From Lama guanicoe (lineage: Eukaryota): DNA of 64,000 nucleotides. The number at the start of each line of letters is the position of its first letter. Position 1 is the stretch's first letter. Below, one piece after another: positions 1-54,747 of this stretch. Location of the stretch: assembly GCA_013239625.1 (NCBI GenBank), contig MU053881.1, positions 6,595,957-6,659,956 of the forward strand, given 5' to 3'. The notes beneath the pieces are model-generated. The model saw only the letters and a list, made by a program, of their open reading frames with translations, made no database searches and was not told the origin of the DNA. Made by a program: the position numbers and the translations under genes.

Positions 1-577
1 CTTTGTATATATTCAGGCTGTGCCCTTAGATGAAGCTTCTATGCAGATAAATCCAGACTGGGGTTGACTTACAGGTGCTGGCTCAGTACATTTTGGCCTT
101 CTGTTTCACAGAGCACTTTTCACACTGTTTAGCTACTATGAAATTTGTGTTCTATCATTCCCATTGTATAGAGGAGAAAACTGAGGTTTGGAGAGGAAAG
201 AGAAAATATTATTCCCGTTTTTATTAGGAGAAACAGAATCAGAGATTTTATGAGATGTTCCAGAGGTCGCAAGGGCAGTAAGCAGAGAGCAAAGACTCAT
301 CTCATCATCTGATTGACAGATACTTCCTGGCATAAGGGACCATCCTGTGTCGCTCTCCTGGACCCCTCTTAGGTCTTTGTGGTTATTTCTCTGTCTTAGC
401 AAGTAAGAGGCCACATTCCTCTACCCAGGCTTCCCACACTTTCTGCACTTGGGAATTTGCAGAGCCCCATCTGTGACAGGAGGGGAGACACCAAGTAGCT
501 TCCGGGGTCCCCCTCCACATCCTCCCCTGCCTCAAGCTCTCTGCCATTCATTTAGCATTTCCAATTTTGTTTCCCTT

Positions 578-620
578 TTCTGAGCATGAGAGCAGCCTTC
601 TGAGCATGAGAGCAGCCTTC
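578..620. repeat. Perfect 20-bp tandem duplication
   Basis: (TGAGCATGAGAGCAGCCTTC)2 at 581-620, preceded by TTC. Confidence 0.95.
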
Positions 621-814
621 ACTCTGGGTGGCCAGCTGTGGGAGTCACGGAGCATATGAGTCATGGAGAGGTGCTTTTAACCTGCCCTCTAACTTCACAG
701 ACACGGCTCCTGCGGCCCGAGAGGAAATGGCTCATCCAAGGTCACACACTGGGCTTCTGGCAGAGCAGGATTAAACTCAGGTCAGTCCTGGCAATTCACT
801 ATTCTCTTCACAGC

Positions 815-1025
815 ACTATTCACTCGTTCAGCAAATGATTACTGAGTGCCTCCCAGCTGCCAGCCACTCTTCTCAGCACTGGGAATAAAGCTGTGGACAA
901 AACGTGGTGAAAGAGCAGTGAACACAGGTAGTGATGGGCACTGTGAATGAAAACAAAGCAGCGTTACAGGACTAGAGACAAACGGGTCATCAGAAGCACT
1001 GTTTTATACAGGCTGGTCAGGAAAG
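815..1025 (-). mobile_element. L2 3' fragment
   Basis: attcactcgttcagcaaatgatttactgagtgcctcccagctgccagccactct... Confidence 0.6.
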
Positions 1026-2073
1026 TCGGCAGCATCAGCAAGTGTGGAATGATGGTGAGCTTGCCAGTAAAAATACTCAGACCTGAATCCCAGCTCTGCA
1101 GTTGAACAGCTGATGAGCTGAGCAAGTTACTTCCATCCTTCAAGCCTCACTATTAAAATGGGCACAGAAGCACCCATCTCTGAGTCTCTTAGGGTCCCAG
1201 GAACCACTGCATAGAAAGCGCCTGGCTTGCAGAAGACACTCAGTAAAGTCCCCTCCTCACTTGGTCGGGGGTGGGGTTCAGCCTCCTAATGGATGTCTTT
1301 GCTTGGCTACAAGTGGGGTGCCACCTACAGAGAGCCCATATAACACTCCATTGGCCAGGGTGGCCACCTGGAAGACTTCTGTAGTTTAAGAATATGAACG
1401 ACCCAGGACTAATTAGCTGAGTTAGTTGGTCAATGCACTTGTGTGTCATGGGGCTCCGAAGCTATTTAATCTGAGAAGTGGGTGGCAACTGCTAAGCTTG
1501 GAGTGATGCTTTGATGGAATTTTCCAGATCAGAGCCCTGGCTTGAAATTCCCAGCCCTTCTGAGAGAAACAGTATCTCTCATCATGAGGCACAAGTCTCA
1601 GAGTGGCTGACTGTAAGCCTTAGGTTGGATCGTAGGAGTCTTTGAAAATGACATGTCAAAAACAAGAAACCCAAACAGCTTCCACTCATGCCTTCTCTGT
1701 GAAGCCTTCTCAGACCTCCCAGCCTGCGTCTCAAGTCCCGAAATGTTCTGTCTATAAGGGTCACTTCTATGGGATTAGGGGGTGGGGACACTGGGGGAGG
1801 AGGCACACTTTCCTTTTCACCTTATAAATCGCCTTTGTTACTGTGTGAAATATTTTTTACACTGTATACATGGATTGCTTTTATAACTTTAATGTTTTGG
1901 TTAAGAACACTACATTCTGAGTACGATAATGGAGAGCAGATGCCTTTTGTTTCATTGTGAAGCTGGTCCTGGTTAAGTCTGGTCTAGTGCGACTGGTAGT
2001 TGGTTAGTTATTTGTGTTCATTGTGGTGTTGCTTTTGTGGAATCAAACTTTTTTTTCAAACAAAACATGATAT

Positions 2074-2225
2074 TGTGGTGATCATGAGTGCTCGTCTCGA
2101 ACTATTTCTGGTTCTCCTTCCAGGCACACATTTGGATGCTCTTTTGGATCCTTTGATGTTAGGTGTGATCACGTGACTGGCATTGGCCAATCAAATGGGA
2201 ACAGGAGTGATTGTGTCCCGGGGTG
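2074..2225 (+). mobile_element. Old MaLR (MLT1) LTR fragment
   Basis: ttaggtgtgatcacgtgactggcattggccaatcaaatgggaacaggagtga. Confidence 0.5.
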
Positions 2226-3339
2226 GAGGTAATATTAGGTGCAAAATTTCCAAATTACAATTGAACAAAGTGCTACGGGGGAAAGGTATGGGATGCCGTG
2301 GGGACTGAAACAGTTAAGACCCAGCCATAAATGCAGGGCTTCTCTGTGGCGGTCCAGAAGGACGAGAATGGATGACCAGGTGACACGAGTGAGGACAGAG
2401 GGAAGGAACAGCCTCTCCAAGGACTCTGCAGTGGGATAAGGGGGGCCTGCCCTGGGAAGTGAGAGAAAGTGCCCTGGCGTGTCTGAAGACTGGGATGAGG
2501 TGAATAAGGGACTGAAGAGTGCAAGGCGAGCATAGACCATATTGTGCTGGGACTTGGGGTCCATGTCACAGTTTAAGGAATGGCAAATAGCAAAGCAAGT
2601 ACAGGACAGAGGGTTTTATTTTTGTGAGGAACCAGTGGAGAGTTATGAATTACAATATTAACCACCCAATGAGGGCTGATGTTAATCATAAGAGAAGTGA
2701 GACATCCTCAGCCCCTCCCTACTTGCTGGGACTTCGTGCAGAATGGCTTTGCAGCGCAGTTCTCTGATGGCTTTGCATCCTTCCTCTCCTGTCTGGCTTA
2801 TTGCAATAGAGAGCCTCTGTTAATCAAACCGGCCTGAGACCTTAGACTTGGTCCCAGCTGTCTGCAAGTGAGGCAAAGGGAGGAAACTCGGCTTCTCTCT
2901 ACCCGTTAATAAAACCTACAATTTGAGATACTTGAAGTTTCAGCTGGAATGCCAAGGGGCCTGGTAATTCCTATTTAGAATGCCAAAGGCTGACTCAGGC
3001 TTGGCTAGAGACCTGACTCCATGGCATGGAGAACACTATAAAGTTGGAGAAAATCTCCTAGGACTGTAAGACTTTTGCTAGCTCATCAGTAACTTCCTTC
3101 TTTATTCTTGTTTTAGTTAGCCCATGACCCTGCAGGGGGGAACAGGTCCTGGTAGTTGTAATTAAAAGGGAGAGATTTGATATGCAAAGCAGCCATGATG
3201 ATCATTGAAGCAAAGTCTAGGAAGGGAGGAAGCCATGGGCCCAGGATTAAGGATGTGGGTAACCCTGTATGCATTTCAGATTATTTCTCAGAAATATTGC
3301 TAGATGTCGAAAAACGCAGGTTTTGTAAAACAGGTAATT

Positions 3340-3394
<55 letters not shown>
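3340..3394. repeat. (TCTA)n tetranucleotide microsatellite, about 13 units
   Basis: Direct reading. Confidence 0.97.
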
Positions 3395-4936
3395 CTAGGA
3401 TAGCATACATATACACTTTAGCAGTGGTTATCTGTGCAGGTTGGGGTTTGGACAACTGTTATTATACTATATTTTCTAAACTTTCTGCAATGAGTAAGTA
3501 CAAATTTCTAATAAGAAGAAATCCATAAAGGATGTTTTAAAGTTGACTTAAAGAACAAACGTGGTGAAGCTGAGAAGCCCTGGTCCTGGGGCTGGGTGGA
3601 GCCCAGAGATCAGTGCTGACACAGTACCCCTTCTTTGCGGAGGGGCCTGGGAAGTCAGGCGGTTGAGGATGGAGTGCCCCTGGCTTGGAGATCTTCACGT
3701 AGCCTTGGCAACACGTTACATTTATCAATCTCAGCTTCAGCATAGGGAAATGGTGGGAACAATCTCTACCTTTTAGGGCTCTTGTGAGATTTCAGTGAGT
3801 TAATGAATGAGGGTGCAACTGGCGGGGAGGACAGGCTCAGTGGGTGCTGAACAGTTCCTGGTAACTCTTCCCTGACCCGTGAAGAAAAAAGACACAGCTG
3901 GCTAGAGGCAGTGGTTTGGACAGGATGCCCTCTGGTCTGGAGGAGGCATTTTGCAGACATCAGGGGATGGGAGTGAGGAGCTAGGAGGTGTTCCATTTAT
4001 CAGGACAGTAGCTGACATTTCAGAGGTATTTCCTAGGTACCAGCTCACCATCTAGTGCTTCACGTACCTTGTCTCACGTAACCCTCCCCAAACCCCGTGA
4101 ACTCCACACTGCCACCCTTTTAAAGACAGAGCACCTGAGACTCAGGGATTTAAGGTAATCTTCCCAAGGCCGCACGGTTAGTAAATGACAGACTTGAGAC
4201 TCAAATCCAGGCCTGCTGGGTGCCGAGACCCATGTTAACTGCTGTGTTGTATCTCCTGGCTTTTATAACCACCTAGGACTGGGTGAAAATTCCAGCTTTG
4301 CCACTTGGATATGACCTAACCCATGTCTCATGGGGGCCAGATGTGACAGACCTGTGCCAGGCACACAGCAGTGCTTGCCATGCGGTGGCTCCCTTGCTCC
4401 CACATCTGGGTCCCCAGGAGGACATCCCCACAGCTTTCTGGTCTTCTGAGGAAGTTTCTCAAAGCTACGCTGCTGAAAAAGCAATTTTTGCTGTAGCTGT
4501 GTGGATAGATTTTTAATATTTAATTAGGAAGACCTTCTTCTTGGAGAGAGGGCAGGACTTGTTATTAAATCCCTGCTGCTTGGTCTCCCTCACTTGCCCG
4601 TGGGATTATTCATTCATTTCCAGTCACACAATTTAATATTGCAACAGCTAATGGGGAGATGTTGATAATTTGTAAAACTGGTTGGTCCCGAGGCCACTGG
4701 AGAAGCTCCATGCCTGGGCCTGATGTGGGGGCTCAAGCAGACTCTCCGGAGAGAGGGTCCCCGGGAGCTTCCTGTTCATTATCCGCAAACATTTGTGAGT
4801 GCCTTCTGAGATGCCATGTTGGGAGCCATGGGGATGGGAAAGATGCTCACTGCACAGCTGCATCCTCAAGGAGCCAGGACGCTAGGATACCTGAATGCAT
4901 TAAAGGGCTTTTGTGGTAGAATTTGTACCTGAGATT

Positions 4937-5487
4937 TGTCAGGTACGTTAAGACACACAGACATGAAAATGACTGTCATGAAGGAAGAAATTTATACTCA
5001 GAGATCCCGAGAAACAGGAGGCATGGCATACCAATGCAGGGCCACAGAGGGAGGCACCAGGGTCAGTCAGGAGGCAGAGATGGATGAGGAGGGAGAGTGG
5101 TTCAGAGCCTTTACTGGGGTTTTTCTGGGAAGGAATGGGCAGGGCGGGATAAGTATGCTGAGTAAACTTAGGATCGGAAAGTGTGAATAACTGTGGCAGC
5201 CGCTGGGCTGCAGCGGTGGTCCCTAGCTGTCTGGTACCTGGCCCCGAGGTGATTTAGGGCAGAGGGAAGACTGGCTTGGTGTGTGAGAGTTAGATAAAGG
5301 AGATGGTTGGGGTCTGGGCTCTGGATTGGGTGGCCTGCATACAAAGGCCCACCTCCAGGGTAGTCATTTGCTATCTCTAGGAATTAGCTAGTTCCGGGGG
5401 TTGGAGTGGGGGGTGGTTAGTCTGTCCAGGATGAAGGCTCGAAATGCCAGAGCATCAAGAATGCAGAAAATATGAAAATATAGTTAG
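4937..5487 (-). mobile_element. ERVL-type LTR, MER74-like
   Basis: Reverse complement reads ...ttttctgcattcttgatgctctggcat...ctagctaattcctagagatagcaaatgact..., resembling the remembered MER74 consensus. Confidence 0.65.
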
Positions 5488-5691
5488 TGGAGTTTGATTT
5501 TTGCAGTTAGATAGACGTGGGTTAAAATGCCTACTTTGACATTTCCTGGCTGGGGCACTGGGCATGAACCTCCCTGGGACTCAATTCTACGTCTCAGTGT
5601 TTCCCCCAAGGACCACTGCAAAGCTTTCAGCCTTCAGCCTGTAGGCTCAGCCCTACCAATGGAATCTCTCCATGAAAAGGGCAACACAGGG

Positions 5692-6150
5692 GTAGGGGAG
5701 TGGGAGTTATGAACTATTGAGTGTAAGACAGACTACAAGGATGTATTGTACAACACAGGGAATACAGCCAATATGTTGTAAGAACTGTAAATGGAGTATA
5801 ACCTTTAAAAATTGTATGAAAGAAATAGTTGCCCCAAACCAGAAACTCACCCAAGTATCCATCAACAGTAAAACAAACAACAAATTGTTAGCGTAGTCAC
5901 ACAATGAAATGCTATACAGTGATGTGAATAAGTTGACTATAGCAGCACCCAGCAATATGGATGAATACAGAGCCCCAAACCAAATAAGATTAATCTATTC
6001 TGTTAGAAGTCAGGATAGTGGTTATCCCCGGGGAGTGGTGACTGGAGTGGAGGGAAAAGGGGGCTTCTGGGATGCTGTAATGGTCTTTCCCATGCAGAAA
6101 AAATCTGCACGTGAGTTACATGGGTTCTGGTGCATATTTCGGTAAAAGGT
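5692..6150 (+). mobile_element. L1 3'-end fragments (a younger piece followed by an older L1M piece)
   Basis: gtattgtacaacacagggaatacagccaata... then ccccaaaccagaaac...ccatcaacag...gaagtcaggatagtggtta. Confidence 0.7.
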
Positions 6151-9100
6151 TTTTTTTTTTTTTTTGGTTTGCTTTTTAAGTAGATGCAGAGGAAAGACCA
6201 GCTAAGAGAGTGTTGCAACTGGATGAGAGACAATATTAACTTTGAGGGAGACCCACGAGAAGTAGATAGATGTTGAATCTCTCTGGCAGAGAGAATCCAC
6301 CGGACTTGCTGATGTAGTGGACAGGGCTGTGAGGGAAAAGGATGCGGAGGTGACAAGGAAGATTCTCCAGGCTGGAGCAGTTGTGTGAGTGGTGGCACTG
6401 TGTTGTGCAGTGGGGAAGGCTGGGAGAGAGCTGCCACATTTCTTTCTGTACCCGTGACCCCAGCAAGGGGCTGTTGCAGAGGTTGGATGTGGTTAATGCC
6501 GACTTATCTTTGGCCATTATAAGTCAATAACCTAATGATTAGTGCTGGGAGAACAGCGAGTTACCACCCTGTGTTCTACACATTTCATCTTCTTAGGATC
6601 GTTCAGAGCTATTTGCTCTCCAAATTCAACAGCTTTCTGTGGAAGGGTTCATGGATGTTTGTCAAATGGACAGAAGATGCCTATTCTCCTTACAGTTACA
6701 GTGCCAGCTTATGTGCATAGGCACATATATGTAACAGTTCCATATGTTCCTCATGATTCTAGATGTTGAGAAAAGGACATTTAAAGGAGCTTCTCAGTGC
6801 AAGTTGCTATGTTCAGTACATTTCATACCTTGCATCATATATTCCTTAAATGACCTCATGAGGATTACTTTATAAATAACTCATTTTCTGGGTCATTAGG
6901 GCTTGGTTATTAGTCATCAAGTGACAGAGTTAGAATTTGAATTATGTTTATTTTTGATGTTGCCACGTTGCTTCTGTCTGATCAGAGATGAGGGTCTGGG
7001 GATCATGAGGACATCTCCCCATCAGCTTCCATGATGACAGGAGGGAGCCCTGATGCTCAGAAAGTGCTTGGAGATCTCCAGATAAGAGCAGTTCTCAGGT
7101 TCTGTTGTGCCCTTCTTAAGAAAACATTTACTCATGATGTCTCTTTATAGAACAATAAAAATGAACCATCTGTGATTCATTGGGGAACATATCTCAGGCT
7201 TATTAAAAATATATGAATTTTTACTTTAAGACGGGATGGCCGTGTTATTCAAAATTGTAAGCCAAAATGTATTATATATTATTAATTTATTTTTAATAGA
7301 CATCTTTCTTATAGATTAGCTTTCTAATTATTTCTGAAAAAGTGGGCAGCAGCAAGGCGAGGTTTCCAATTAAAATTGTCCTGAAGATAAATTGAGGTCT
7401 CTGGCTGAGAGCACTTCAGCCTTTTCCCCATCTGGGAGCAGGAGCATCTGTCATCCTGGAGGGGCAGGGCTGGGATTCTCATTTGTGCTCGATCTGCCCC
7501 CAAGAGTTTGAGGTTCTCCTCGGAGCGGGCTGGGGTGCTTCCAGCCGTGATTCCTGCAAAGGCACCATCCAAGAGTCACGTGGGTGAAGGCGAGCCATCA
7601 GGACAGACTGCCTCCTGCCTGCCTCTTGCTGCCTCTCTCCTTCCAGCCACCTGCCCTTTCTAAGGCCCCCACGCTTTCTGCTTCCTAACCTCTCCCCCAA
7701 GCAAAAACCGCAGCGTGCCTGCGGCAGCTGTTATGACAGCTCATGTAATGTGGTGACAGGAGAATGTATGGGTCTTTCAAACGCTTCATGTAATGATAAA
7801 AATAGATAGTTGATTGAAGCTCATTCATGTCGATTCAAATCAGGTTGTGTTGACTGAGGCTTCTGAGGTCAGATGCTTGCATCTGTAAAGCTGGGTAAGT
7901 GGAAAGCATTGGATGCTGGCCCCCAGGGGGTGTGACTTGAATTCCACACCGGTCACACACTAGTTATGTTGCTTCTCCAATTAGGTCACCTGCCCGAAGG
8001 CATTTCCTTGTATGTCAAGGACACTCATTTCTTCTCAAGTGTTAGGTGGGTCCCCAGGACCTGGCGCACTGTAGGTGAGCAGCAGGTGTGGCTCGTTTCC
8101 TTTCCTCTCCCGCCTATTCCTGTGTGAAGAGCTGGCGTGGTGAACTGAGCTCCAGGTCTAACCTGCCTGGGAGTCAATCTGGCACCATCGTTAAGGGACA
8201 ACACATGGCAGGGCTGGCTTGACCCCTCGGGGGCCAGCACAGGGCAAAGGACACTGAATCACAACCCTCCACCCGGGTTCAGTGTTCCCTGCTGGGCTGG
8301 GCATTTCCAGTCCCTGGGTTTCGATTCCTTCTGCAGTAGAAAAAGGAGGGAGGGCAACCAGGGTGCTGCGTTTCTACTTTTCTGGCCTTAGGCAGTTCTC
8401 TCTATATTTTTAGTTTATTAATCAATTATGAATCTAGTCTCTAGAAACTTCTCTAAAGTCACCTTAAACCTATGCTATGTTCAATTCATATTAATTTCCT
8501 CTTAAGACACCAAGTTTCATTAAGTTGATTTTGGCTAAGTCAAATTTCTTTCAACCCATCCTAGTTTACCTCTTTTAATCTAATTTTAGTATGTTTAGGA
8601 TTGGCTCAGCCTTTTTATTTATTTTTTAACATATAAGCATGTCTGTGCTCTCCATATTCAGATTTTAAGGAAGAGAAGATTTATATAAAAGGAGTTTAAT
8701 GAATTCTTACTATGTAATGACATGGTAAGTGCTTTCACATTTGTTAATCTTTTATCTTCCCAGCAATCATGGAAGGTGATACTGGTATTCCCAGTTTGCC
8801 ATTGATTAAGCTAAGGCTCAGAAAACTTAAGTGACTCTCCCAGGGTCCCACAGAGAGTAAGCACTTGCACTGGGATCTGGAGCTGGCTCGCTCTGTGATG
8901 TAATGTTGCTTACACAATGTTGCAACAGAATTTTGCAATGTTGTAATGTTGTGCCCAGCTTCCTTCTGCCTTCCTTTTCCTCTTTACACATTGGAGAGAT
9001 GGAAATTATTACTCCTGGACTTGCTCAGCATTGATTCTTTGCTTCTCCAGGCGTGGAGGATTTTTTTTTTAAAGCCTCATGTCTTGTCTGAAAAAGCTTG

Positions 9101-9625
9101 GATTGGAGACTCTAAAGCAGGGGTCCTCCAGAGCTCCCATCTAGCAGCCTGCTTCTTTTCTGTTGCACTTGGCCTCTGTGGAATCTTAGGATAAAGCCGT
9201 GAGTGCTGCAGCTTAATGCAGACCTGACTGAATAATAGCCCATACATTTAATACCATGCATGTTTAATTGCATCTGGCCAATGAGTGCGTTTCATGTTTG
9301 GGGATCTTTACTTAGGTGGTTCTTGGGGAAAACTGAGGGCATGTATATCAAGCAATTTTTGAATTATGTCTCTATTAGCATCTGCGAATGTCTCCCCAGG
9401 GAAGCCAGGAAAGCTCTATTAGCCGAGCAGTTTAAAACAGGATTGGAGGAAGCAGAGGGGGAGCATCCCATAGGGAACAATAATTACAAGCAGCACTTCC
9501 ATGTAAACAGGTCTTAATGTGCTTTCTATATTGAATTCCTGAGAGTGAGACTCTGGGGTGGTATCTCAGCGCCTCCTCCAGGGCCGCACCCTAAACTGCT
9601 GGGAACTGAGGCAGAAGACTCAGCA

Positions 9626-9650
9626 CCCCCCCCCCCCCCCCCCCCCCCCC
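9626..9650. repeat. C25 homopolymer
   Basis: Direct reading. Confidence 0.95.
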
Positions 9651-11488
9651 GGCCCCCTGGGCACCAGAAGCCTCTCAGACCATGGCAATGCTGAGCTGTA
9701 GGCAACATGACAATGGCATTGTTATGTGACCTTGAGGAAGTCACCTTGGGCAAGTCACTTCCTCTGTTTGGGCCCTTGTAGAATATTTATAAAGTGTTAA
9801 CACTAAGCCAAATGCCTTCATACAATTTATTTCAATTAATTCTCCCAATATCCTGCAAAATGGGCTATATTACCCCATTTTACAGATTAGGAGTTAAGTA
9901 CCTTGCCCAAAGTTGTTAGCAAATGACAGAGCTGGGATTTAAATTATGGCCTCTGACTCCAACTTGAGGGTTATTTCCATGACATCAGATCATTTCTATG
10001 TTCTTTAGGGTGTTCTCAGGCTAAATAGTCTATAAAATATACCTTTTTTTTGTACCAGAAACTTGGTGATCTTACCCTGGCTTTTCCAACACTCTGTCAA
10101 CTTATTTATACTCTAGCAGCCACGGGAAAAGATATATCGCTCATTGGTTCTGTGTTTTATTTATGGCTGCTGCTGGTTCCAGTATTCTAGGGGTTATGGC
10201 TCAGGCCTGCTGTACCCATAAAGCATCCTAACTGATGGTGGGTTGTCATAGTGATAGTGCCATAGAGAAACGCTGGGGTCCTGGCTGGATCACATCCCGT
10301 CTGTCTACCTTGAAAGCACGTTCATGGGTCTTCTTACATAAAGTAGAATCATGAGATCGTTGCAACTTCAAGGTTGAATAGACCTTAGTTATCATCCAGT
10401 GGTTTTCAAATTCACGTAAAGGCAAGGAATTCTTTAATCAAGGGAAATTTTTTCGGCAGCTAAGTATGTAAAATAGATGAAAGCAATCAGATGCTGGGGT
10501 TAAAGTGAGAGATAAGAAGAATGTTGTTTTTCTTCTTCAAATCCCATATGGTGGTCCTTCAAAAGATTTTGCAATTCACCATTCGGAAATCAGTGATCTA
10601 ATTCAACCTGTTTGTTTTGAAGTTGGCTAGGGTGAGCCCAGTGAGGGACACTGATGTGCATGAGGGACGGGGCTGAGGCTGGAGTCCAAGTCTACTGTCA
10701 TGCCACCTGGGGCTCTTTTCTCAATCATGTAGAGATGGCAATGAGAATGCCCCAGGATGGGGCTGGAAGGATTCTGGGACCTTTGCTATAAATAGGGAAG
10801 GTCACTAATTTGTGCATTAATCCATTCATTCATCAGCTTTTACTGAGAATCTATTTGTCAAGTAGTAGAACTTGCTCTATTCTTGGAATATTCTCTGAAA
10901 TATCAGGGGCTTACCCCAGGGCAGGCCAGAGTGGGAATAGCAAGCTTCTGTCCATATTTAGGATGTATATTAGGAAGGGAGTAGAGAGGTTTGGAGAAGG
11001 AGCCAGGTTTGTGGAAGGCCCACAGGAGAAGAGCGAGAAGTAATTCTGTGTATGGTATGGGATGGATGTGCAGTCTTTCCTGGAGAAGTCAGAAGCCTTT
11101 GTCTTGGGCCGCCAAATGCATTCAAGGTGTGAGAGGAAGCTTTGGAGATAAATCCCTGGGTCCATCATTCATTCAGCACTTCCTGAGCATCTGCTATGTG
11201 TTGGGCACTGTGCTGGGCAGAAGGGATGTATGGTGAGCAGGGCGGACATAACCACTGCCTTCATGAGTTAGCTCTTTCCAAGTCTCCCTTTTGTGGGATA
11301 AAGAGATCTGCTCACTCATTTAACAAGTGTTTGTTCTTAGTGCCACAACTGACTATCTTCTTCACGTTGGTTCCCTCAGGAGGTATAGCTTAGAGTGACT
11401 CCTGAGGGCACAGGTCACCCCAACCATCTTCTCGCTAGTTTTTAAAATAAGCAAATGTGAAAGCAGCTAACAGTCTAAAACCAATATA

Positions 11489-11810
11489 CCGTTGTCCCTC
11501 AGTGTCCACAGGGAGATTGGTTCCAGGCCACTCCTCCTCCAGCAGATACCCAAATCCACAGATGGTCAAGTCCCTTGTATAGTAGATGGAACAGTATTTG
11601 CATGTAACCTATGCACCTTCTCCTGTATACTTTAAATCGTCTCTAGATTGCTTATAATACCAAATACAATGTAAGTGCTATGCAAATAGTTGCTCAAGTG
11701 TGGCAGATTCAGCTTTTGCTTTGGGGAATTTTCTAGAATTTTTTTCAAATATTTTCTGTCTGCAATTGATTTCTGCACATGTGGAACCCCCAGATATGGA
11801 GGGCCATCTG
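11489..11810 (+). mobile_element. MER2 (TcMar-Tigger non-autonomous DNA transposon)
   Basis: c(a/c)gttgtccctc...ggattggttccagg...aaatccacagatg...tatactttaaat...ctctagatt...gagggccatctg, with degenerate terminal inverted repeats and flanking TA dinucleotides. Confidence 0.85.
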
Positions 11811-13955
11811 TACTATGTTAGTATCACAATTAAAACAAAAAAAAGAGTTTACTCGAGTTCTTCACACACAAATTTCACTGACAAAATGATTGCCTAAGCA
11901 GGGAACCATTTTTCAAAAGTGGTTCAAAATCAGTCTGGGTGCAGAAGGAATGGGAACATAGGCTAGATAAATTTTGATGGAAATGGATTAAAAGCAGGGA
12001 GGTCAGAGAGACAATGAATGGAGAGATCAACCCAGCTGGGTGTCACATAGAAAGGTCTGAGTAGCAGGAGAGAGCTCTGGGGCCTGGGGCCAGCCAGAGA
12101 GAAGACCAGGGGCACAGAGAGGGAAGGTGAAGGTAGAGAGGAGGAATCTATGGGCAAATTTGACTTTTTAACCTTTGAATGTCGCCTTGAGGGAAGTAAA
12201 GGAACACTACTGCAGTGCTTACTTACTTCCAGGGCATTGGATCAATGAAGCACTGTGTTGAATACACTAAACAAGTGACTGTGTTGGTGACACTGAACTC
12301 TTTATTTTGGAAAACCTCAAATACCCAGCCTGAGAGATGCCTAACAGGGTAACTGGATAGACTGTTTTTTTGTTTTGTTCTGTTTTGTTTTTTTACAGCC
12401 AGGTTTGTGGACACTGGAGACAAAGGCTGGGTTCCTCCCTGGGGCTGGTTTTGCCTGGGGACAATGGTGTTCTGGCCACAGCGCAAGTGCAGGACAGTTC
12501 GCTGTGACTTTCCTTTGCAATGTAGAATCTCTAGAGATTGAAGCACGAAGAGCAGTTGGTAAACTGCTAATTAGCTAAGCTGACTCCTCAAGGCTTGTGA
12601 TTACAGGATGTTAAGTTACTGGACATCCAAGTGAACCACAGAGAATCAAGTGATCACCTCGAAACTTAAATCTCCTTCCGGTCACTGCCCCCTCCCCTCC
12701 CTCCCTTTCTCGCTCCCTCTCACCTCCTCATCTTTCCTTCCTGCCACTGCTGACCATGTCTCTCTCCCCTCCCCTCTTCTCTTCTACCTCTCATCTTCCT
12801 ATCTTGCTTCTCCTCTTCTTCTTTCTTTGTAGTTGAAAATATTATGGATTTTTTAAGTAGGTTAATTTTATTCCTTAAATGGAATTTATATTCCCTTTTC
12901 TTATTATAAAAATCAGGATGGTGGTCCTTCTGTGTCAGTACCCAGGAATCTGCATCATTATCTTTAGCTTCTGAGCACTGGTGTCACACCAGTGCCATAG
13001 GGATATGAGTGGCATTGTATCTGTATTGGAAGGGATTGTCTTCAAAAGGGATAATTCGTGTATTTATTACTTGTGTAATTACTATGTATATTAATAGGAA
13101 AACACGTTTTTACAAGTCAAGTGGGTTGAACATTTTATGTTTCTCTTGCTTTGAAGAACCTCAAAGCCAGTCACATGCAGTTGCTTTGATTTGTATGTGG
13201 ACTTGCTCAGAATCTATGATCTTGGATGGAAAAAGAAATTTTTAGAAGTTTATCATGCTGGCTATGGCAGTTTGCAAAATACTAGAAATTCTATACCAGC
13301 AAATCTTGTGTGTCTTTGCACTGGGTTTGGGGAGATTTTTCTCAGCTGCAGAATGGGTGTGGGGAGAAGGTGGGCAGGTGGCAGAGTGGGACCTGCAGTC
13401 GGTGTCGTTTTGTTGGTCAGGCTGGGGGTCTTCAGGCTGTGGCTGAATTAGAGAGTGGCTGCTTAAGCCTGGGAACCTCTAGATAGCCATCGGAGATCTA
13501 AATACTGGGAAGGCTGCTGACCACAGAATGCATTCTCCTGATTAGGGGGGAGGAGGTCCTAGCTGTCCTTTTGCTGGTCATACAAGTAGACAAGTTTTAG
13601 AGAAAGAACTGGGCGCTGACCCAGAGCAGGAGACGGGGTTGTCCTCATGGGGAATGAGAGGCCTGAGGAAACCCCTCTCCTTGACCTTGAAAGAGGTATT
13701 TCTGGGAACATCATATAACCCTTGAAAATGTAAAAATGATAGTATAATAACAGACTTGGTAGGTAGAAAGATGGGAGAAGTAGAGGAAGTAAAAATGCCC
13801 TTGTCTTCTAATATTTCAGAGAAGGTGGGCAATAGATACTCCTTGAAGCCAGCATTTAAGTAATCAAGGATTAAGCGTGCCATTTAAAGTATAACTAAAT
13901 CTACATTGGAAGTGAGAACAGCTAACCAAACCTGGAGACAGAAAGAGGGGAAAGA

Positions 13956-14110
13956 AACAACAAGGATGTATCACATAGCACAGGGAATTAAGCCATTATC
14001 TTGTAATAACATTTAATAGAGTATAATCTGTAAAAATACCGAATCACTATGCTGGACACCTGAAACTAATATAATACTGTAAATCAACTATACTTCAATA
14101 AAAAAAAAAG
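13956..14110 (+). mobile_element. Short L1 3' end
   Basis: atagcacagggaat...gaatcactatgctggacacctgaaactaatataatactgtaaatcaactatacttcaataaaaaaaaaa. Confidence 0.85.
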
Positions 14111-14264
14111 AAAGAGGAAAAAGAGAGAAGAGAGGTATGAGGTTAAGACTGCAGAAGAGTAATCGACTTCAGCTTTTTTGGTCTATTCAGTGGTAGGAGG
14201 ATATATGAACCCTGGAGAGGTGCACGCGCGCGCACACACACGCATACAGACTTATCAACAAGAC

Positions 14265-14602
14265 TGTGCTCCTTTTAAAGGCTGTAGGGGAGAATCCATT
14301 CCTTGCCCCTTCCAGCTGCTGGCGGCTTTCAGCACTCCCTGACTTGTAGCCACATCACTTCAATCCCTGCCTCCATCTTCACATCGCCTTCTCCTCTTCT
14401 GTCTGTGTCTAATCTCCGTCTGCCTCTCTTTTGTGATACTTAGGATGGCATACAGGACCCAGCCAGAGGATTCAGGACAATCGTCTCAAGACCCTTAACT
14501 TAATTGTACCTGAAAAGGACCTTTTTCCTTGTAGGGTGGCATTTATAGTTTCCAGGGATTAGAACCTGATATCCTTGGGTGCCTATAATTCAGTCCACCA
14601 CA
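14265..14602 (-). mobile_element. MaLR LTR fragment, MLT1C/D-like
   Basis: ggggagaatccattccttgccccttccagct...atcttcacatcgccttctcctctt...attcagtccaccaca. Confidence 0.75.
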
Positions 14603-16013
14603 CCCTAAATTTATTAGTTTATCAGTACTTTACCAAAAGGAATAGTACAAATATTTGATGAGTAGAAATGGTGACATTCCCAATGTCCAGGCACAGTGTA
14701 AGTGCAAGTTTCACTGGATTTGGACAATGAAAAATGCTCTGGAGTGGCTCTAAGAAGGCTTGAATTGAGTCCTGAAATCGTTACTTCTGAGCCATGTGGC
14801 CTTGAAGTCAAAGCTACAGAGCCTCAGTTTAAAAAAAAAAAAGACAAAATTATAAAATTAGTTCAATAATAACAATATAGCATCTTAATATCTTGCAGGA
14901 TTTCTCTGTTGTCCAAGATAAACACTATATGGACAGTGGTTTCTTAAGCTATAAAGTACCAAACAGTTCTTGAGTCCATAAGAAACAATTAAAGCTGGAT
15001 ATGTGTGGGCAGTTGGCTCCATATGAACCGTATTTCAAATTTTTTTCTATTAAGTGGGTCCATCAAATCTCCAGAGTAATACTACATGTTTCATATAATT
15101 TAGAATGCTTAAAAAATGGACTTTCTAAAGACCCCATAAACACCTCGATTCTCATGGTTTCCCCAAGATTTTGCCATGTTATTATTGCTATTATTTTCAT
15201 CTGTGGTTCTTGTGTAGCCTGTGACATTCCTGGTTTCATGAACAAGCTATGGTCAAAGACAGCAAAAAAATAAAAACAAAAATAAAAACAAAACACCCCA
15301 AAACAAAAAACCTATGTTTAGACAGATATAAGATATGGCAGCAAGAGAACCTACTTTGAGAAACACTGATGTGGGCCTCACTGTTTCATCAGTGCTTTGA
15401 GCTGGAATAGTCAATTGCTTCTAATAGTCTAATGGCAGAGCCAGTAGACATGATGCTTTGGGAAAAGAGGGCTCTTACCTGGTGAGGGTGAAGTTGCATA
15501 AGGCTGGCCCAGCAAGCAGTGAGAAGAGAGACAGAGAATTAACTGGCATTGGTCTCTGAACCTTCTGGGGGGGCATTACTTGTCTGTCACCACCCCCCAA
15601 CATTCCTGCCTTGATCTTCTTTCTGCAGCCCCTGTTGTCCTCACTTTGGTGGAAGTGACCATGAGCTTGATTGCCTAGCTGGCCCTGGTAGTGAAGGCTG
15701 GGCATGCATGGTGACATTGCATATAGGGGAACAGTCATCCCAGTGTTCCTAGTCTGGAAGTTTCACTGGCAACTTCCAAATCCAAAGAGAAGGCTTATAC
15801 TGCCCAATAGGCCTGATGGACTTTAAACCAAATACATAAAGCATGGGTTTTGTCTTTTTTCCCTGATGAGTAGCATATTCCTTTGATTGGCATGACCTAG
15901 AGCTGAGAAGAATTAAACATTTATGAAGTACCTGCTATGAGATATAATAAGCTTGGTACTTCCCCATGTGCCACTTCATTTAATCCTTACAAAATATGCA
16001 GCATTACTCCTAC

Positions 16014-16449
16014 TGTTTTGGGTTGAATTGTGTCATCCAAAAAGCTATGTTGACATTGTAATCCCTGGTTCCTGCAAATGTGACTTCATTTGGAAATAGA
16101 GTCTTTGCAGATGCAGTCAAGTTAAGATGAGGTCATTAAGGTGGGTTCTAATACAATATGACTGGTGTTCTTACAAGAAGAGGAAAATACCATGTGAAAA
16201 CAGAGACATAGGGAGAAGTTGGAGACAGAGACTGGAGTGATGTTGCCACAAACCAAGGAAGACCTGGGTCTACCAGAAACTGGAAGAGGCAAACAAGGAT
16301 TCTCTCCCAGAGGCCTGGGGAGGAAGCATGGCCCTGCCAACACCTTGCTTTTGGACTTCTAACCTCCAAAACTTTGAGAGAATATATTGCTGTTGTTTTG
16401 AACCTCCCAATTGGAAGTAATTTGTTACAGCAGCCTTAGGAAATTAATA
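16014..16449 (+). mobile_element. MaLR LTR, MLT1C-like, inserted within a MIR
   Basis: tgttttgggttgaattgtgtc...tttggaaatagagtctttgcagatg...gccctgccaacacctt...tttgttacagcagcc. MIR halves lie on both sides. Confidence 0.85.
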
Positions 16450-16701
16450 ATCAGTCTCATTTTTCTATTTTCACAAATGAGGAAAGTGAAACCTAGAGAA
16501 GAAGAGAGACTTGCCCAAGGTCACACAACTGATGATTGGAGTATCCAGGATTGGAATCCTGCTCTTTTGACTCTGGGCCCAATATCTATACTATTTCAGA
16601 GTTGCTACTGAAAAATAAAATAGGAACAAGACCAAAGGCCTAAGAAATACTGATGGGTTCTTTAGAGATGGTCCACTGCTCTCTTTAAATTGACTTCATA
16701 A

Positions 16702-16748
16702 AGACGGCTGGCCGGTTAGCGCAGTTGGTTAGAGCGTGGTGCTGATAA
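16702..16748 (+). pseudogene. Tailless 5'-half tRNA-Ile retropseudogene
   Basis: GGCCGGTTAGCGCAGTTGGTTAGAGCGTGGTGCTGATAA (16710-16748) is the tRNA-Ile 5' half up to the anticodon loop. Flanked by the perfect direct repeat TAAATTGACTTCATAA (16686-16701, 16746-16761) at a TTT/AAA L1-endonuclease-like site. No poly(A). Confidence 0.9.
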
Positions 16749-18343
16749 ATTGACTTCATAATATTGGTCCGAGTGTATTTAGTAGGAGATCATTTTTTTC
16801 CCCTTAATACTAAGTGGATGAACAGAGTTTCCCATATCACATACACATTAAAAGTGGTGTTTTGGACCACATGGTGATGGTGCTAGCATAGGAGCCTATG
16901 TGTAGTATAGACCTAATAGCAGACCAAAGATTCCATCTGGAGCTGGCTTACTTGTTGAGCTACTAGGTGTCCAGGACAGAGAAGGAAATTTTAGAGACAA
17001 ATACCTGCTCATTGCTATTGCTGTATCTTTGGAAATTTTATGTAACTTCTCTAAAACTGTCTTCTTCCTTGTATAAAAGGAACAATAATATCTACTTTTC
17101 AGGGTTATTAAATTTTTTCCCTTAGAGTGTTATTTTGAGGGTTACATTAGCTCATGTATATAAATGCACCTGACATTATTCCTGGGACATTGTAGATGCT
17201 GAACAAATGTTAATCCCTCCCTTTACCTGGGTTCCTGGAGGCAGTATTAAACATATGTTCTCGGTATTTCGACTTAATCCCCTCATTACTATAACATTAG
17301 GTGAATGACTGATATCTTCTGTGGTAATAAAGTCAAAAGCTGCACTTGAGAAGTTAAAGCAGGGGAAGGAAGATGGTTACCTTTGAATATGGAAAGGAAG
17401 AATATTTCTACTGTAACATTAACCTTATAAGGAAGTAAGAAACTCTTGCATTAATTTGTAATCTTGGTGGGATGTCTATTCTGAAGCTCTGAACAGGGAT
17501 GAAACACATTCTCTGGGGATCTGGTGGAGAACAGAGACTTTACTCAATTGTTACGACTGGCAAGCTGAATTTGGAGTTTTAGAAGAGCACATATAAGGGG
17601 CTGAGTAGCTAGGAAGAATCTCTATGTGCATACAGAACTATTCTTCCCAATTGTTATATTTCAGGTGGATTTTAAGAAAGAAAGTTTTATGAATGTGTTT
17701 CAGCTTTCAAAATCTCAGGGAAACATGATCATAGACTTGCAGAATCATAGATTCACTAAATTTTCGCTAAAGCTTAAAAAGCTCTTACATAGGGCTCACA
17801 TATACAACAGATAAAGTGGAGCTGGTTTTATAGAAGCAAGAAACAAGGGCTTATAGTCTGCTTTGCCACCCTCGCCTGTGCCTTCCCCCCCAAAAAAACC
17901 CAAAGCAAAGATATCTTTGGGTTACTCTAGAATTTCACAAAGCAGAGATTGAAATTCATCAATATTCTCATAGAAAACTGAGATTCAGATAAAACAATGA
18001 TTTGACCAAGGTTAAACAGAGACAGATTATTGAAAGAACCCAGGTCTCTTAACTCTTGGTGCAGAACTCATCCAACTACATCATTCTGTCCTTCAGTCTC
18101 TGGTCTACCTCAGCTTCAATTGGTTCTTTAGCTAGTCCTTTGTATTTCATTATTATGTGAAACCTCTCAGAAGAGGAATTCTGTCTACATTCTGCAGTTA
18201 TGGAAGAATATACATCGAATATGCATTGTATATACATTGACTATACCTTGTTGGAGGCTGGTCTTATTTAATGCATTGCTCATCAAAATTGGAATCTCTC
18301 CAGGAACCTAATGTTGTAGGAATTATAGAAAAGCTATGTTCTA

Positions 18344-18771
18344 ACCGACAACATAACGCCATTTGCAGCAACATGGATGCTCCTGGAGAATGTCATTCTA
18401 AGTGAAGTAAGCCAGAAAGAGAAAGAAAAATGCCATATGAGATTGCTCATATGTGGAATCTAAAAAAACCCCAAACAAACAAAGCATAAATACAAAACAG
18501 AAATAGACTCACAGACATAGAATATAAACTTGTGGTTGCCAAGGGGGCAGGGGGTGGGAAGAGATAGCCTGGGATTTCAAAATTGTAGAATAGATAAACA
18601 AGATTATACTGTATAGCACAGGGAAATACATACAAGATCTTATGGTAGCTCACAGAGAAAAAAATGTGACAATGAATATATACATGTTCATGTAAAACTG
18701 AAAAATTGTGCTCTACACTGGAATTTGACACAACATTGTAAAATGATTATAAATCAATTTTAAAAAGTTAA
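18344..18771 (+). mobile_element. 5'-truncated young L1 3' end
   Basis: gccatttgcagcaacatggatg...attctaagtgaagtaagccagaaagagaaag...tgtatagcacagggaa..., A-rich tail, 15-bp TSD aaaagctatgttcta / aaaaactacgttcta. Confidence 0.88.
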
Positions 18772-19288
18772 AAAAACTACGTTCTATTTGGAACACAATC
18801 TCATGGAGAGAAAGAAAATAGTCTTCGTTTCTTGAGGTCCTTTAACCTTGGGCACCAAACCACTAACTTCGTAGTAATAAACAGTGTGGTTAACCCAAAT
18901 TTTTAACTGCAGTCTTACTAAGGAATGGAGCTACACTCATGGCTGATGATGAGGCTTTAGAGTAAGGGTTCTTATGAGGGTTGAGGGTTAAGGATTGGGG
19001 AAAGGAACTGACATTTATTTGTCTTCTAATTGCTAGGCACTGTGATTAGCCTTTTATAAAGTCTTTTACCACCATAATCTTCCCAACTACTTAAAATTAA
19101 TCAACACAATGACTTTTAAAAGTCATTGGCTTCTACCAACAATAGTTATCAGACAACTTGAGGGAGGATTTTCTCGTATTCTGCTAGTTTCACATAGCTA
19201 GTAATCTACCAAGACTCAAATGCATATAGGAGGGGAAGAGAAGATCCTAATCGCCGCCTGCTCCCCCACCACTCTCCAGGCGCCACGT

Positions 19289-19309
19289 TTCAGCACCACG
19301 GACAGCGCA
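19289..19309 (+). promoter_or_regulatory. REST/NRSF binding site (RE1/NRSE)
   Basis: TTCAGCACCACGGACAGCGCA matches the canonical RE1 TTCAGCACCACGGACAGCGCC at 20/21 positions. Confidence 0.92.
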
Positions 19310-19470
19310 TCACTCCGGCGTTTTGAAGAAGGCGGGGATCAATACAGCTCTGATTCAGCCCGGCTTTTTCAAATCTCTCGGGTCTCCGCTACTTTCCATG
19401 CATTTTCTAAACTACTCTCACAACAATCTAAGCTGAAAAACACATTCATGTAAACCGAGGGTTCGCTTAC

Positions 19471-19579
19471 CGTCTGACAAGTCAATCAGCCCGAGGTAGT
19501 GCAAAAGTTTCAGAGAGGAGCACACGACCACCACTATTCCCAGGGTTTGAAGCCCCTCGGACTCGCCCTCCGCCCACAT
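19471..19579 (-). CDS. KCNIP1: Alternative first coding exon of a Kv channel-interacting protein (KChIP) gene: N-terminal transmembrane KIS-domain-like segment, 36 codons + 1 nt (partial CDS)
   Basis: Translates to MWAEGESEGLQTLGIVVVVCSSLKLLHYLGLIDLSD. Ungapped match of EGL-x13(hydrophobic)-KLL-x3-GLI[DE] to the remembered KChIP4a N-terminus EGLEMIAVLIVIVLFVKLLEQFGLIE. ATG has a purine at -3 (aggATG). Exon ends GACG|gtaagc (plus strand cttac 19466-19470), phase 1, compatible with the KChIP core exon starting at Asp (DKIED in KChIP1). Paralog assignment is inference, because the sequence differs from 2x/3x/4a. Confidence 0.82.
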
Positions 19580-19760
19580 CCTCACGGAACACTGGCGCAC
19601 CAGCAAGACGCCAAGCGGGCATTTAAAGCTCGAAAACCAGGCTTCCGAGCCTCCCTTCCCGCTGTTCTAAGTGCACTGTTTATTTCCACTCTTCCTCACA
19701 GTCTCTCCCTCCCTCCCTCCCTTGCACTCCTCCCTACTCCCTCCACCTTTCTCCTCCTCC
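19580..19760 (-). promoter_or_regulatory. Putative promoter/5'UTR of the transmembrane KChIP exon
   Basis: TATA-like TTTAAAT on the minus strand at 19621-19627, about 42 nt upstream of the ATG. Local CpG enrichment 19250-19660 in otherwise CpG-poor DNA. Purine-rich tract (minus strand) at 19700-19760. Confidence 0.55.
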
Positions 19761-20559
19761 TAGCTGGCAACCTCTACATTGTTTCATAGTAGTTTTTGCT
19801 TTTATTTCCTATTCTCCCAAGGCAGTTCCCCCCAAACGTTTAACCAACCCCTAAGCATCTGCTACCCGAGGGTAACCACAATTGGCAACGTCTGACAGTA
19901 TATGCCCTCTGCAACTCAGAGGGAATGCATGTGAGCGTAGACATAAAGGAAAACACCTAACAGCTTTTGATCTGAGATAGACTTAGAGATGAAGGCTATT
20001 TTTCAAAAGGACAACAATTTGTATTACTTCAGTTAAAAAAAAAACAGTCAAGCTTATTCTGGAATACAGACATCACAAAGTATCCTTGGAAACTGAATCA
20101 TCAAGAAAGTAATTGTGAACTGGGCCATGTCCACCGTTAAATTTTGTTTGGGCAGGTTTTATATCAGTATTAAAAATTGTTAAGAGGATAGTCAAGCTGA
20201 CTAAATGATCACTGGGCAGCACTGAATGAGCAAATTTTCTGGAAATAAAGCAAAAAACAGTGAAGCAAATATGATATTGGTGTATCCTAAACTTTGGGAC
20301 TCTGTGGGGAATTTACAATTTTCCTACACTGGATTGTCAGCAGTGAGCCTGGTGGGGAAGGGTATCATGTGATGAAGAGAGAAGACTGGAGATTAATGTC
20401 ACAGAGACCTGTCCTTGGGAAAGTTCCTTGGTCTCCATGAGGCCCAGTTTCCTTTTATTTGAATAAACCTACCTCAACTAAGAGAACCCATACCAAGTGT
20501 GAGAACAGAGTGTGTACTTAACAAATGCCGGTCTCAAATTTTGAGACTACCCCATGTTG

Positions 20560-46439: not shown

Positions 46440-47700
46440 AAGTACTTCTGCTGTTGAAAATGATGCTGCAACAAATAGTCTTGCGTATGCCTCTTAAAGG
46501 ACTTGCTCAAGAGTTTCTGTAAGGTAAATATTTAACAGTGGCACTGTTGGGTCATTTTGGGGTCATATTCAACTTTTCTAGGCATTGCCAAACTGTGACA
46601 ACAAGGTGAGCATACTAATTGGCTTTCCCACCAGGAACGTGTTCAGAGTTCCTGTTGCTTCATATTCTCCCTGATTACTTATTAAATTCCTGAATTCTCG
46701 TCAACCTAGTGATTATGAAATTGTGCCTCGCTGTGTTTTAATCTGCATTTTTCTGATTACTAATGAGGTTGAGCCACCCTGCATAGAACTATGAGCCTTT
46801 AAATACTCTCTTCTGTGACATTCCGTTTTATATCTTTTGCCCACTTTTTAATGTTGGAGTGTCTGTTTTTATCACCTTGGTTCTTAGGCCACATTTATAT
46901 ATTTGTGGATCCTAGGCTTCTGTTGGCTGTCTGTGCTGAAGGTGACTTCTCCCATGCCGTGGCTTGTTCTTTAACCCTCTTTAAAGTGCCTTTTGGCGGA
47001 CAGAGCTCTTAATTTTAACGAGTTCAAAATCATTCATCTTTTCCTTTACAGTCTGCACTTTCTGTATCTTGTTAAAGACATTCTTTCCTCACCTGAGGTC
47101 ATCCATATATTTTCCTATATTCTCTTCTGCAAGTTTTACCATTTTTCTTTTTCACGTTTAGGTATTTAATTCAATTCGTCTGGAATTGATTTTTATGTAG
47201 GGTGTGAAGTAGGAGTTCAATTACATTTTTTTTTCCTATCATAGATTACCAATAGTCTCAGCACAGTTATTTAAAAGTCTGCCACTCTTTCCATTTCTCT
47301 GCATGCGATGCATCAAGTATCCACCTCCACGGGAATCTTCCACTGAGCTCTTGTTTCCCGTTGCTCTGTTTGTTTATCTCTGCACAGCCACACTGCCCTC
47401 ATCGCTCAATTTATTTTCAGTGGAGGTACTGGGGATTGAACGCAGGACCTCATGCATGCTAAGCATGTGCTCTACTGCTGAGCTCTACCTTCTTCCCCAC
47501 TGGGAGCAGCTCTTAAAGTTCCCCAGATGTTTGAATTTAGATCAGAATTGCATCAAAATCATAGTGCATTTGGGGGTGGACTTAGTACATCCTTGCCGTG
47601 TGGAGTCTTCCAATCCAAGATCATGGCTTATGCTCTCCATCTAGATAGATAGGTTTTCCCTAATGCTATCGATCAGACTTCATTAATTCTTTCTTCCACA
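46440..47700 (-). mobile_element. Old L1M fragment (degenerate ORF2/3' region)
   Basis: ttttaatctgcatttttctgattactaatgaggttgagc...ctggaattgatttttatgtagggtgtgaagtagg. Confidence 0.75.
47408..47498 (-). mobile_element. Camelid tRNA-Ala-derived SINE (Vic-1 type), inserted in an old L1
   Basis: Reverse complement of the same tRNA-like head (tggaggtactggggattgaac...gcatgctaagcatgtgctctac). Confidence 0.85.
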
Positions 47701-54618: not shown

Positions 54619-54747
54619 GGGGAGGGTGTAGCTCAGTGGTAGAGCTCATGCTTAGCATGCACGAGGTCCTGGGTTCAGTCCCCAGTACCTCCATTAAAAA
54701 AAAACCAAACAAACCTAATTACCTCCCCCCGAAAAAAACCAAAACAA
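54619..54747 (+). mobile_element. Camelid tRNA-Ala-derived SINE (Vic-1 type)
   Basis: GGGGAGGGTGTAGCTCAGTGGTAGAGCTCATGCTTAGCATGCACGAGGTCCTGGGTTCAGTCCCCAGTACCTCCA with A/B boxes and an A-rich tail. Direct repeat AAAAGAGTGGAA at 54597-54608 and 54748-54759. Confidence 0.88.

Follow-up and report, generated by a model that had tools for sequence, protein, structure and literature searches.

KChIP N-terminal variants set the size and the inactivation speed of a neuron's A-type potassium current. The hydrophobic-start (transmembrane) members named in the excerpted text of the reviews are KChIP2x, KChIP3x, KChIP4a and KChIP4e. As set out in excerpts of the 2014 paper by Jerng and Pfaffinger (PMC3973911), KChIP2x, 3x and 4a hold Kv4 channels in the ER and slow their inactivation, and residues 12-17 of KChIP4a, LIVIVL, form a six-residue aliphatic ER-retention motif, which an excerpt of a 2023 review describes as well. 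In vitro, the N-terminal helix of KChIP4a competes with the Kv4 N-terminus, and in the free crystal structure 3DD4 that helix sits in the groove of the core (PMC6104694, in excerpt). KChIP4e (Jerng and Pfaffinger 2008, as summarised in the excerpts of PMC3973911) is there called 'considerably different': it is perinuclear, raises Kv4.2 surface expression, speeds recovery and does not slow inactivation, and a fusion of its N-terminus to eGFP is not found in the membrane fraction. In the relevant passages of a 2020 eLife paper on CCK interneurons, KChIP4e is assumed to do what the remaining transmembrane KChIPs do, and its kinetic effects are called not known. The literature disagrees on the behaviour of KChIP4e, and the function of the e-type class is itself unsettled.

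For KCNIP1, the excerpts of PMC3973911 give only the isoforms KChIP1a, KChIP1b and KChIP1c. The 2023 review, in its corresponding passage, counts five human KCNIP1 variants, 'another two unnamed isoforms' among them, and the forms studied in the excerpted part of a January 2026 paper are 1a and 1b only. Literature searches by isoform name and by peptide turned up no paper that names or tests a hydrophobic-start KChIP1, and a broader one on KCNIP1 and alternative promoters had nothing relevant among its 15 listed papers; primary KChIP papers may mention such an exon. The locus described here indicates that KChIP1 also has a hydrophobic-start form, of the barely studied KChIP4e class and unnamed in the channel literature, which is a caution for work that handles KChIP1 as a single classical subunit.

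The window analysed is a 64,000-nucleotide stretch of the Lama guanicoe genome (C1866:6595957-6659956). We refer to its segment 19471..19579, on the minus strand, as the KCNIP1 e-type exon. The exon and its immediate surroundings comprise the following features.

19471..19579 (C1866:6615535-6615427), minus strand: coding part of the KCNIP1 e-type first exon, from sequence, translation and tblastn
19465..19470, minus strand: splice donor GTAAGC, with the exon end ...GACG directly before it
1..19464, minus strand: first 19.5 kb of the intron to KCNIP1 exon 2, based on the core-exon coordinates (same contig, same strand)
19482..19622, minus strand: out-of-frame upstream ATG (19622-19620) with a 46-codon frame overlapping the exon, from the ORF list and sequence
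19622..19627, minus strand: TTTAAA, a TATA-like hexamer about 45 bases 5' of the exon ATG

The exon ATG occupies 19579-19577 on the minus strand and opens a run of 36 sense codons down to 19472; since a single base (19471) lies beyond them, the exon ends in phase 1. The initial annotation had described a 36-codon ATG-initiated segment with a hydrophobic core, ending at a phase-1 GTAAGC donor and contained in the mechanical open reading frame 19418..19606 (minus strand), and its coordinates, frame, phase and donor are all correct.

The exon had also been ascribed to KCNIP1, and the genomic context bears this out. When the complete assembly is searched in six frames with a chimpanzee KChIP1 model (isoform X2, XP_054540741.2, 232 aa; P0012), residues 1-38 match the window exon at 97% (E 4.1e-14), and tblastn of the same residues against a locus database returns 19579-19466 with 37/38 identical residues (E 1.7e-34). 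Judged as a sequence match, the similarity to an annotated KChIP1 start is far beyond chance. This contig also carries the KChIP1 core exons, likewise on the minus strand, from 6582071 down to 6576544, with 69-95% identity to P0012. KCNIP1 exon 2 begins at C1866:6582061 and reads ...TTCCAG/AT AAG ATT GAA GAT GAG (slash at the splice site); the final G of the e-type exon (19471) and the AT of exon 2 restore the Asp codon GAT, and the product reads DKIEDEL. The intervening intron is 33,365 bases long and exon 2 lies outside the window, 13.9 kb past its low end. The canonical MGAVMG exon (C1866:6770704-6770644) is a separate exon 155 kb upstream of the e-type exon, in agreement with the earlier proposal of a KChIP1 form that has a hydrophobic helix and lacks the myristoylated MGAVMG start; it ends with an identical G/GTAAGC, in the same phase. 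The first intron of the canonical (myristoylated) KCNIP1 transcript is therefore where the exon must be placed: this intron is 188.6 kb long and contains the whole window, which makes 19471..19579 an internal alternative first coding exon of KCNIP1, an assignment that we consider strongly supported.

The window has 58 stop-to-stop frames with 110 aa or more, and by eye not one looked like coding sequence of another gene. A tblastn fragment between the e-type exon and exon 2 ('WSYLS', L014) was considered as the KChIP1b aromatic exon and rejected, as it has no exon-like context. Elsewhere in the window, 47421-47492 (minus strand) and 54622-54693 (plus strand) match Rfam tRNA models at 45.8 and 44.8 bits; near-identical peptides arise from the flanking frames, and both are thus most likely tRNA-derived SINE copies, not tRNA genes. 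The segment 56001-62000 is G+C-rich (0.59-0.60) and carries several (CA)n/(GT)n microsatellites; it holds no 500-base window at CpG-island thresholds and, by eye, no coding-looking frame.

The upstream ATG at 19622-19620 lies 43 bases 5' of the exon ATG in a weak context (T at -3, C at +4), and its A is the last A of TTTAAA. It could dampen translation if the transcript start lies 5' of it; if transcription starts 3' of TTTAAA, this ATG would be left out of the mRNA. From its sequence and position, we infer only that TTTAAA is a candidate core promoter element. The same upstream-ATG context, seen as MPAW/MPAR/MPAG or as F-K-C-P read-through, is present in ORFs of other mammals (P0007, P0010, P0003/P0004, P0060 and P0070). 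There is no CpG island at the e-type exon. RNA-labelled sequencing runs contain 0.13-0.23 of the sampled words of window 19100-19900, shares that on their own are no evidence of expression. A 784-base contig of the same assembly (C49958; L011) duplicates window 19239-20022 at 782/784 identical bases and probably represents either the second allele or a duplication in the assembly. One of its two differences is intronic (19455); the other, at 19478, is exonic and replaces Leu-34 by Phe, as found at this position in the shark KChIP1 and the KChIP4e-type exons.

The exon had been called hidden, which does not hold, as the annotated KChIP1 models of many vertebrates begin with it. A search of longer proteins with the window's 62-residue ORF gave 32 proteins at E<=10 among 53 candidates: 15 are named KChIP1/KCNIP1, 1 is a newt KChIP4, 5 are labelled 'hypothetical' or EF-hand, and 11 are unnamed ORFs from sequencing-run assemblies. 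The 15 KChIP1/KCNIP1 entries come from chimpanzee, desman, bat, geckos, lizards, snakes, tortoise, pigeon, manakin, caecilian, frog and bamboo shark. The exon peptide is residues 1-36 of the chimpanzee model P0012 and equally of P0035, whose UniRef name spans 15 Simiiformes taxa; the 90% cluster of these two proteins has 57 members. The identity to primate proteins does not reflect primate DNA, since an Alu motif matches nowhere in the 64-kb window. In 24 models the e-type start runs directly into DK[IV]EDELE (NKVEDELE in the shark model, P0031), and in 3 further models it is followed by the KChIP1b aromatic exon and then by the KChIP1 core. Models that carry the e-type exon together with the short aromatic KChIP1b exon are from field mouse, gecko and garter snake (P0044, P0047 and P0020), and the two N-terminal modules may combine.

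A search among shorter proteins yielded 90 at E<=1 among 97 candidates, of which 17 were examined. Ten of the 17 are run-derived ORFs (Logan or ENA) that contain the exon and read through its donor, and two are fish gene models (Albula and Clarias, the latter named KChIP4) with spliced e-type forms. The other five lack the exon; three of these are rodent KChIP1 fragments with the MGAVMG start and two have other starts. Over both protein searches, 0 of the 20 run-derived ORFs examined that have the exon (10 per search) is a spliced form, and the splicing of the exon consequently rests on the database gene models. In public vertebrate gene models the KCNIP1 e-type exon is already annotated; it is a known type of element, and its isoform is functionally unstudied in the literature found.

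The unspliced state of all 20 run-derived ORFs, the lack of a CpG-island promoter and the presence of an out-of-frame upstream ATG could all be accommodated if the exon were an unused relic or an artefact of automatic annotation. We regard this as highly improbable, given how the exon has been conserved. Among 52 proteins compared, 42 have the e-type block, and 40 of these are KChIP1-type rows (39 tetrapod, 1 shark). The 40 rows reduce to 11 distinct 29-residue blocks (counted from EGL), in which 18/29 columns are invariant. The start Met precedes EGL by 7 residues in 39/39 tetrapod KChIP1 rows and by 8 in the shark row. In 21/21 unspliced ORFs of other organisms, G-K follows right after the exon end and the sequences then diverge, which is the pattern predicted for a conserved G/GTAAG donor followed by a free intron. 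The conservation of ATG and donor, which had been proposed as a check on the exon, is thus present: from shark to mammals the ATG, the reading frame and the donor have been maintained, and the flanks diverge while the exon does not. When the e-type exon of KCNIP1 is aligned over 32 codons with that of KCNIP4 from this same genome, the two differ at 25 third, 6 first and 1 second positions, with pS at 0.83 (saturated) and pN at 0.16; so few amino-acid changes against saturated synonymous sites imply purifying selection on the peptide in both genes since their split, which argues further against a relic. As far as the sequence comparison goes, the e-type KChIP1 start has been kept under strong constraint from shark to mammal.

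We then compared exon types by counting identities to the KCNIP1 e-type exon over the 29-residue block starting at EGL, with these results.

KCNIP4 e-type exon of the same genome (L028, C55224:25732988-25733101): 22/29 identical
Newt KChIP4 e-type start (P0033): 24/29 identical
KChIP4a exon of the same genome (L027): 10/29 identical
KChIP2x-like exon of the same genome (L029): 9/29 identical
KCNIP1 a-type starts (P0036 and P0049): 9/29 identical

Among themselves, the a-type exons are identical at 16-24/29 positions, and tblastn to L028 gives E 8e-20. On these alignments the window exon is what corresponds in KCNIP1 to the first exon of KChIP4e, not to the KChIP4a/2x KIS exon.

The initial annotation had taken the exon for the one corresponding to the KIS exon of KChIP4a, 2x and 3x, and such a KCNIP1 copy would make a membrane-spanning protein that holds Kv4 in the ER and suppresses fast inactivation. 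Several of the sequence features on which that proposal drew are real. The EGL-x13-KLL-x3-GLI spacing is present both in the window exon and in the solved KChIP4a chain 3dd4_A (taken from a HMMER alignment of the newt KChIP4 model to that chain), where C-S-S does align with V-L-F of KChIP4a, and the phase-1 end is common to the two exons. Under a gap-free, EGL-anchored alignment, the VKL gating motif of KChIP4a becomes LKL here, its Lys and Leu being kept, and some KIS-like gating effect is possible; the excerpts of PMC3973911 align KChIP4e otherwise, with LLH at the VKL site (critical Leu-21). The assumption in the passages of the eLife 2020 paper that e-type N-termini act like those of other transmembrane KChIPs also favours this explanation. 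Against it stand the block identities (9-10/29 to a-type exons versus 22-24/29 to the e-type), and the KChIP4a hexad LIVIVL, which aligns with VVVVCS in the KCNIP1 e-type exon, Cys-Ser interrupting the aliphatic run. KChIP4e itself is reported, in the excerpts of PMC3973911, to raise surface expression and not to slow inactivation, and the KIS behaviour predicted for the window exon therefore does not carry over.

A second argument comes from a distinct a-type exon in KCNIP1. In the protein cluster of the chimpanzee model P0012, sugar glider KCNIP1 isoform X1 (P0036) has a KChIP1 core behind a KChIP4a-like MNLEGLEM... start. A region search with the MNLEGLEM-type start gave 5 proteins at E<=10 among 7 candidates, namely KChIP1 models of a second marsupial and two birds and genomic ORFs of cobra and antbird; P0036 and P0048-P0052 together form our a-type KCNIP1 set. 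Because KCNIP1 models of marsupials, birds and a snake contain an a-type exon of their own, the window exon is not the KIS-type exon of KCNIP1, and we find it quite unlikely that the KIS explanation is correct. To the extent of their excerpted text, the KChIP reviews do not list an a-type start for KChIP1.

In the genome of the window, the a-type start finds the a-type exons of KCNIP4 (72% identity) and of a compact KCNIP2-like gene (69%). On C1866 the genome search gave no match to an a-type exon, and tblastn over 6,582,000-6,778,699 gave only chance fragments (best E 0.11). The a-type KCNIP1 exon seems to be absent here, in a single genome where a badly decayed copy is possible, which suggests that it was lost in at least this placental. 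On C55224, KCNIP4 has its a-type exon at 25466720-25466815, its e-type exon 266 kb further on and exon 2 (25847800) another 115 kb beyond. The e-type exon has the same relative place in KCNIP4 as in KCNIP1.

The peptide of the exon consists of a short acidic tip and a hydrophobic stretch, long enough to span a membrane, with a best 19-residue Kyte-Doolittle mean of 1.92. Its Eisenberg hydrophobic moment is 0.12 at a mean hydrophobicity of 0.50, and the low moment indicates that the helix is not amphipathic. Over a 12-residue core, the Kyte-Doolittle value is 2.48 in the KCNIP1 e-type exon versus 3.39-3.73 in the a-type exons, which fits an anchor weaker than theirs. In an AlphaFold2 model of P0012 (19-row alignment; mean pLDDT 60.5), residues 4-28 form a predicted helix with pLDDT 44-69, too weak for placing the helix. 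A phmmer search of the PDB with the 36-residue peptide found nothing at E<=10, and Pfam has no family for it.

These properties leave room for a helix that does not cross the membrane and acts instead as an autoinhibitory lid in the groove of the KChIP core, competing with the Kv4 N-terminus, or associates with membranes peripherally. The weakly hydrophobic core relative to the a-type exons is compatible with this arrangement, as are the absence of the KChIP4e N-terminus-eGFP fusion from the membrane fraction (PMC3973911, in excerpt) and the position of the helix of free KChIP4a in the groove in 3DD4 (PMC6104694, in excerpt). However, the combination of moment and mean hydrophobicity is that of an ordinary hydrophobic helix rather than of one lying at a surface, and KChIP4e is reported to be perinuclear, as the transmembrane forms are (PMC3973911, in excerpt). 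On balance we judge a non-spanning helix unlikely, if a more serious contender than a KIS exon.

The explanation that we prefer, and consider probable as a whole with its action inferred, is a KChIP4e-type alternative first exon of KCNIP1 whose helix acts as a tether and whose product behaves like KChIP4e. The e-type exon would presumably be driven by its own internal promoter and joined through its phase-1 end to exon 2, which it shares with the canonical KCNIP1 transcript. The predicted product, a KChIP1 of 232 residues, would have the MGAVMG start exchanged for 36 residues that comprise an acidic tip and a single hydrophobic helix (approximately residues 10-32). The helix would tether KChIP1 to internal (ER/perinuclear) membranes with the acidic tip lumenal, or at least associate it with membranes, and would thereby affect the place and manner in which KChIP1 engages Kv4 channels. 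The behaviour to be expected is KChIP4e-like and not KChIP4a-like: fast inactivation would not be suppressed, nor surface expression blocked.

The e-type exons of KCNIP1 and KCNIP4 would descend from one exon that predates the vertebrate KCNIP gene duplication. This ancestral e-type exon would have been distantly related to the KIS exon of KChIP4a/2x, having only the EGL/K-L/GL scaffold and the splice phase in common with it. A still wider proposal, which we offer tentatively and hold to be possible short of probable, is that a helix-anchored e-type KChIP1 exists in every jawed vertebrate, made from an internal promoter, expressed in a cell-type pattern of its own and acting in its own way on Kv4 channels or in non-channel KChIP roles. 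The ancestral KCNIP would then have had both a- and e-type exons; KCNIP4 would have kept both, and KCNIP1 would have kept both in marsupials and sauropsids and lost the a-type in at least this placental. If this is true, core-directed antibodies or gene-level RNA counts for 'KChIP1' pool functionally different proteins, and KChIP1 is not purely a 'classical' myristoylated KChIP.

Among the described systems, KChIP4e is the closest. The two exons have in common the phase-1 G/GTAA donor, a mid-helix Cys and K-L-L-H, and in both genes the e-type exon is the nearest to exon 2 of the alternative first exons found (33 kb away in KCNIP1, 115 kb in KCNIP4). They differ in the gene, which is KCNIP1 here and not KCNIP4, in the N-terminal tip, which is three residues longer in the KCNIP1 exon (in the aligned W...ES stretch), and in the segment itself, which is slightly less hydrophobic in KCNIP1 (Kyte-Doolittle 1.92 versus 2.36). 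With the KIS (KID) domain of KChIP4a, 2x and 3x, the exon has in common a hydrophobic N-terminal helix, its position as an alternative first exon, the EGL-x13-K-x-L-x3-GL scaffold and the phase-1 end. Compared with the canonical, N-myristoylated KChIP1a and KChIP1b (MGAVMG), the predicted protein has a hydrophobic helix in place of the lipid anchor and is common to them from exon 2 onward. From the annotated 232-aa KChIP1 models, which begin with the same 36 residues and continue into the ordinary KChIP1 core, the window exon does not differ in protein sequence; what the window adds is the genomic anatomy of this exon in another mammal.
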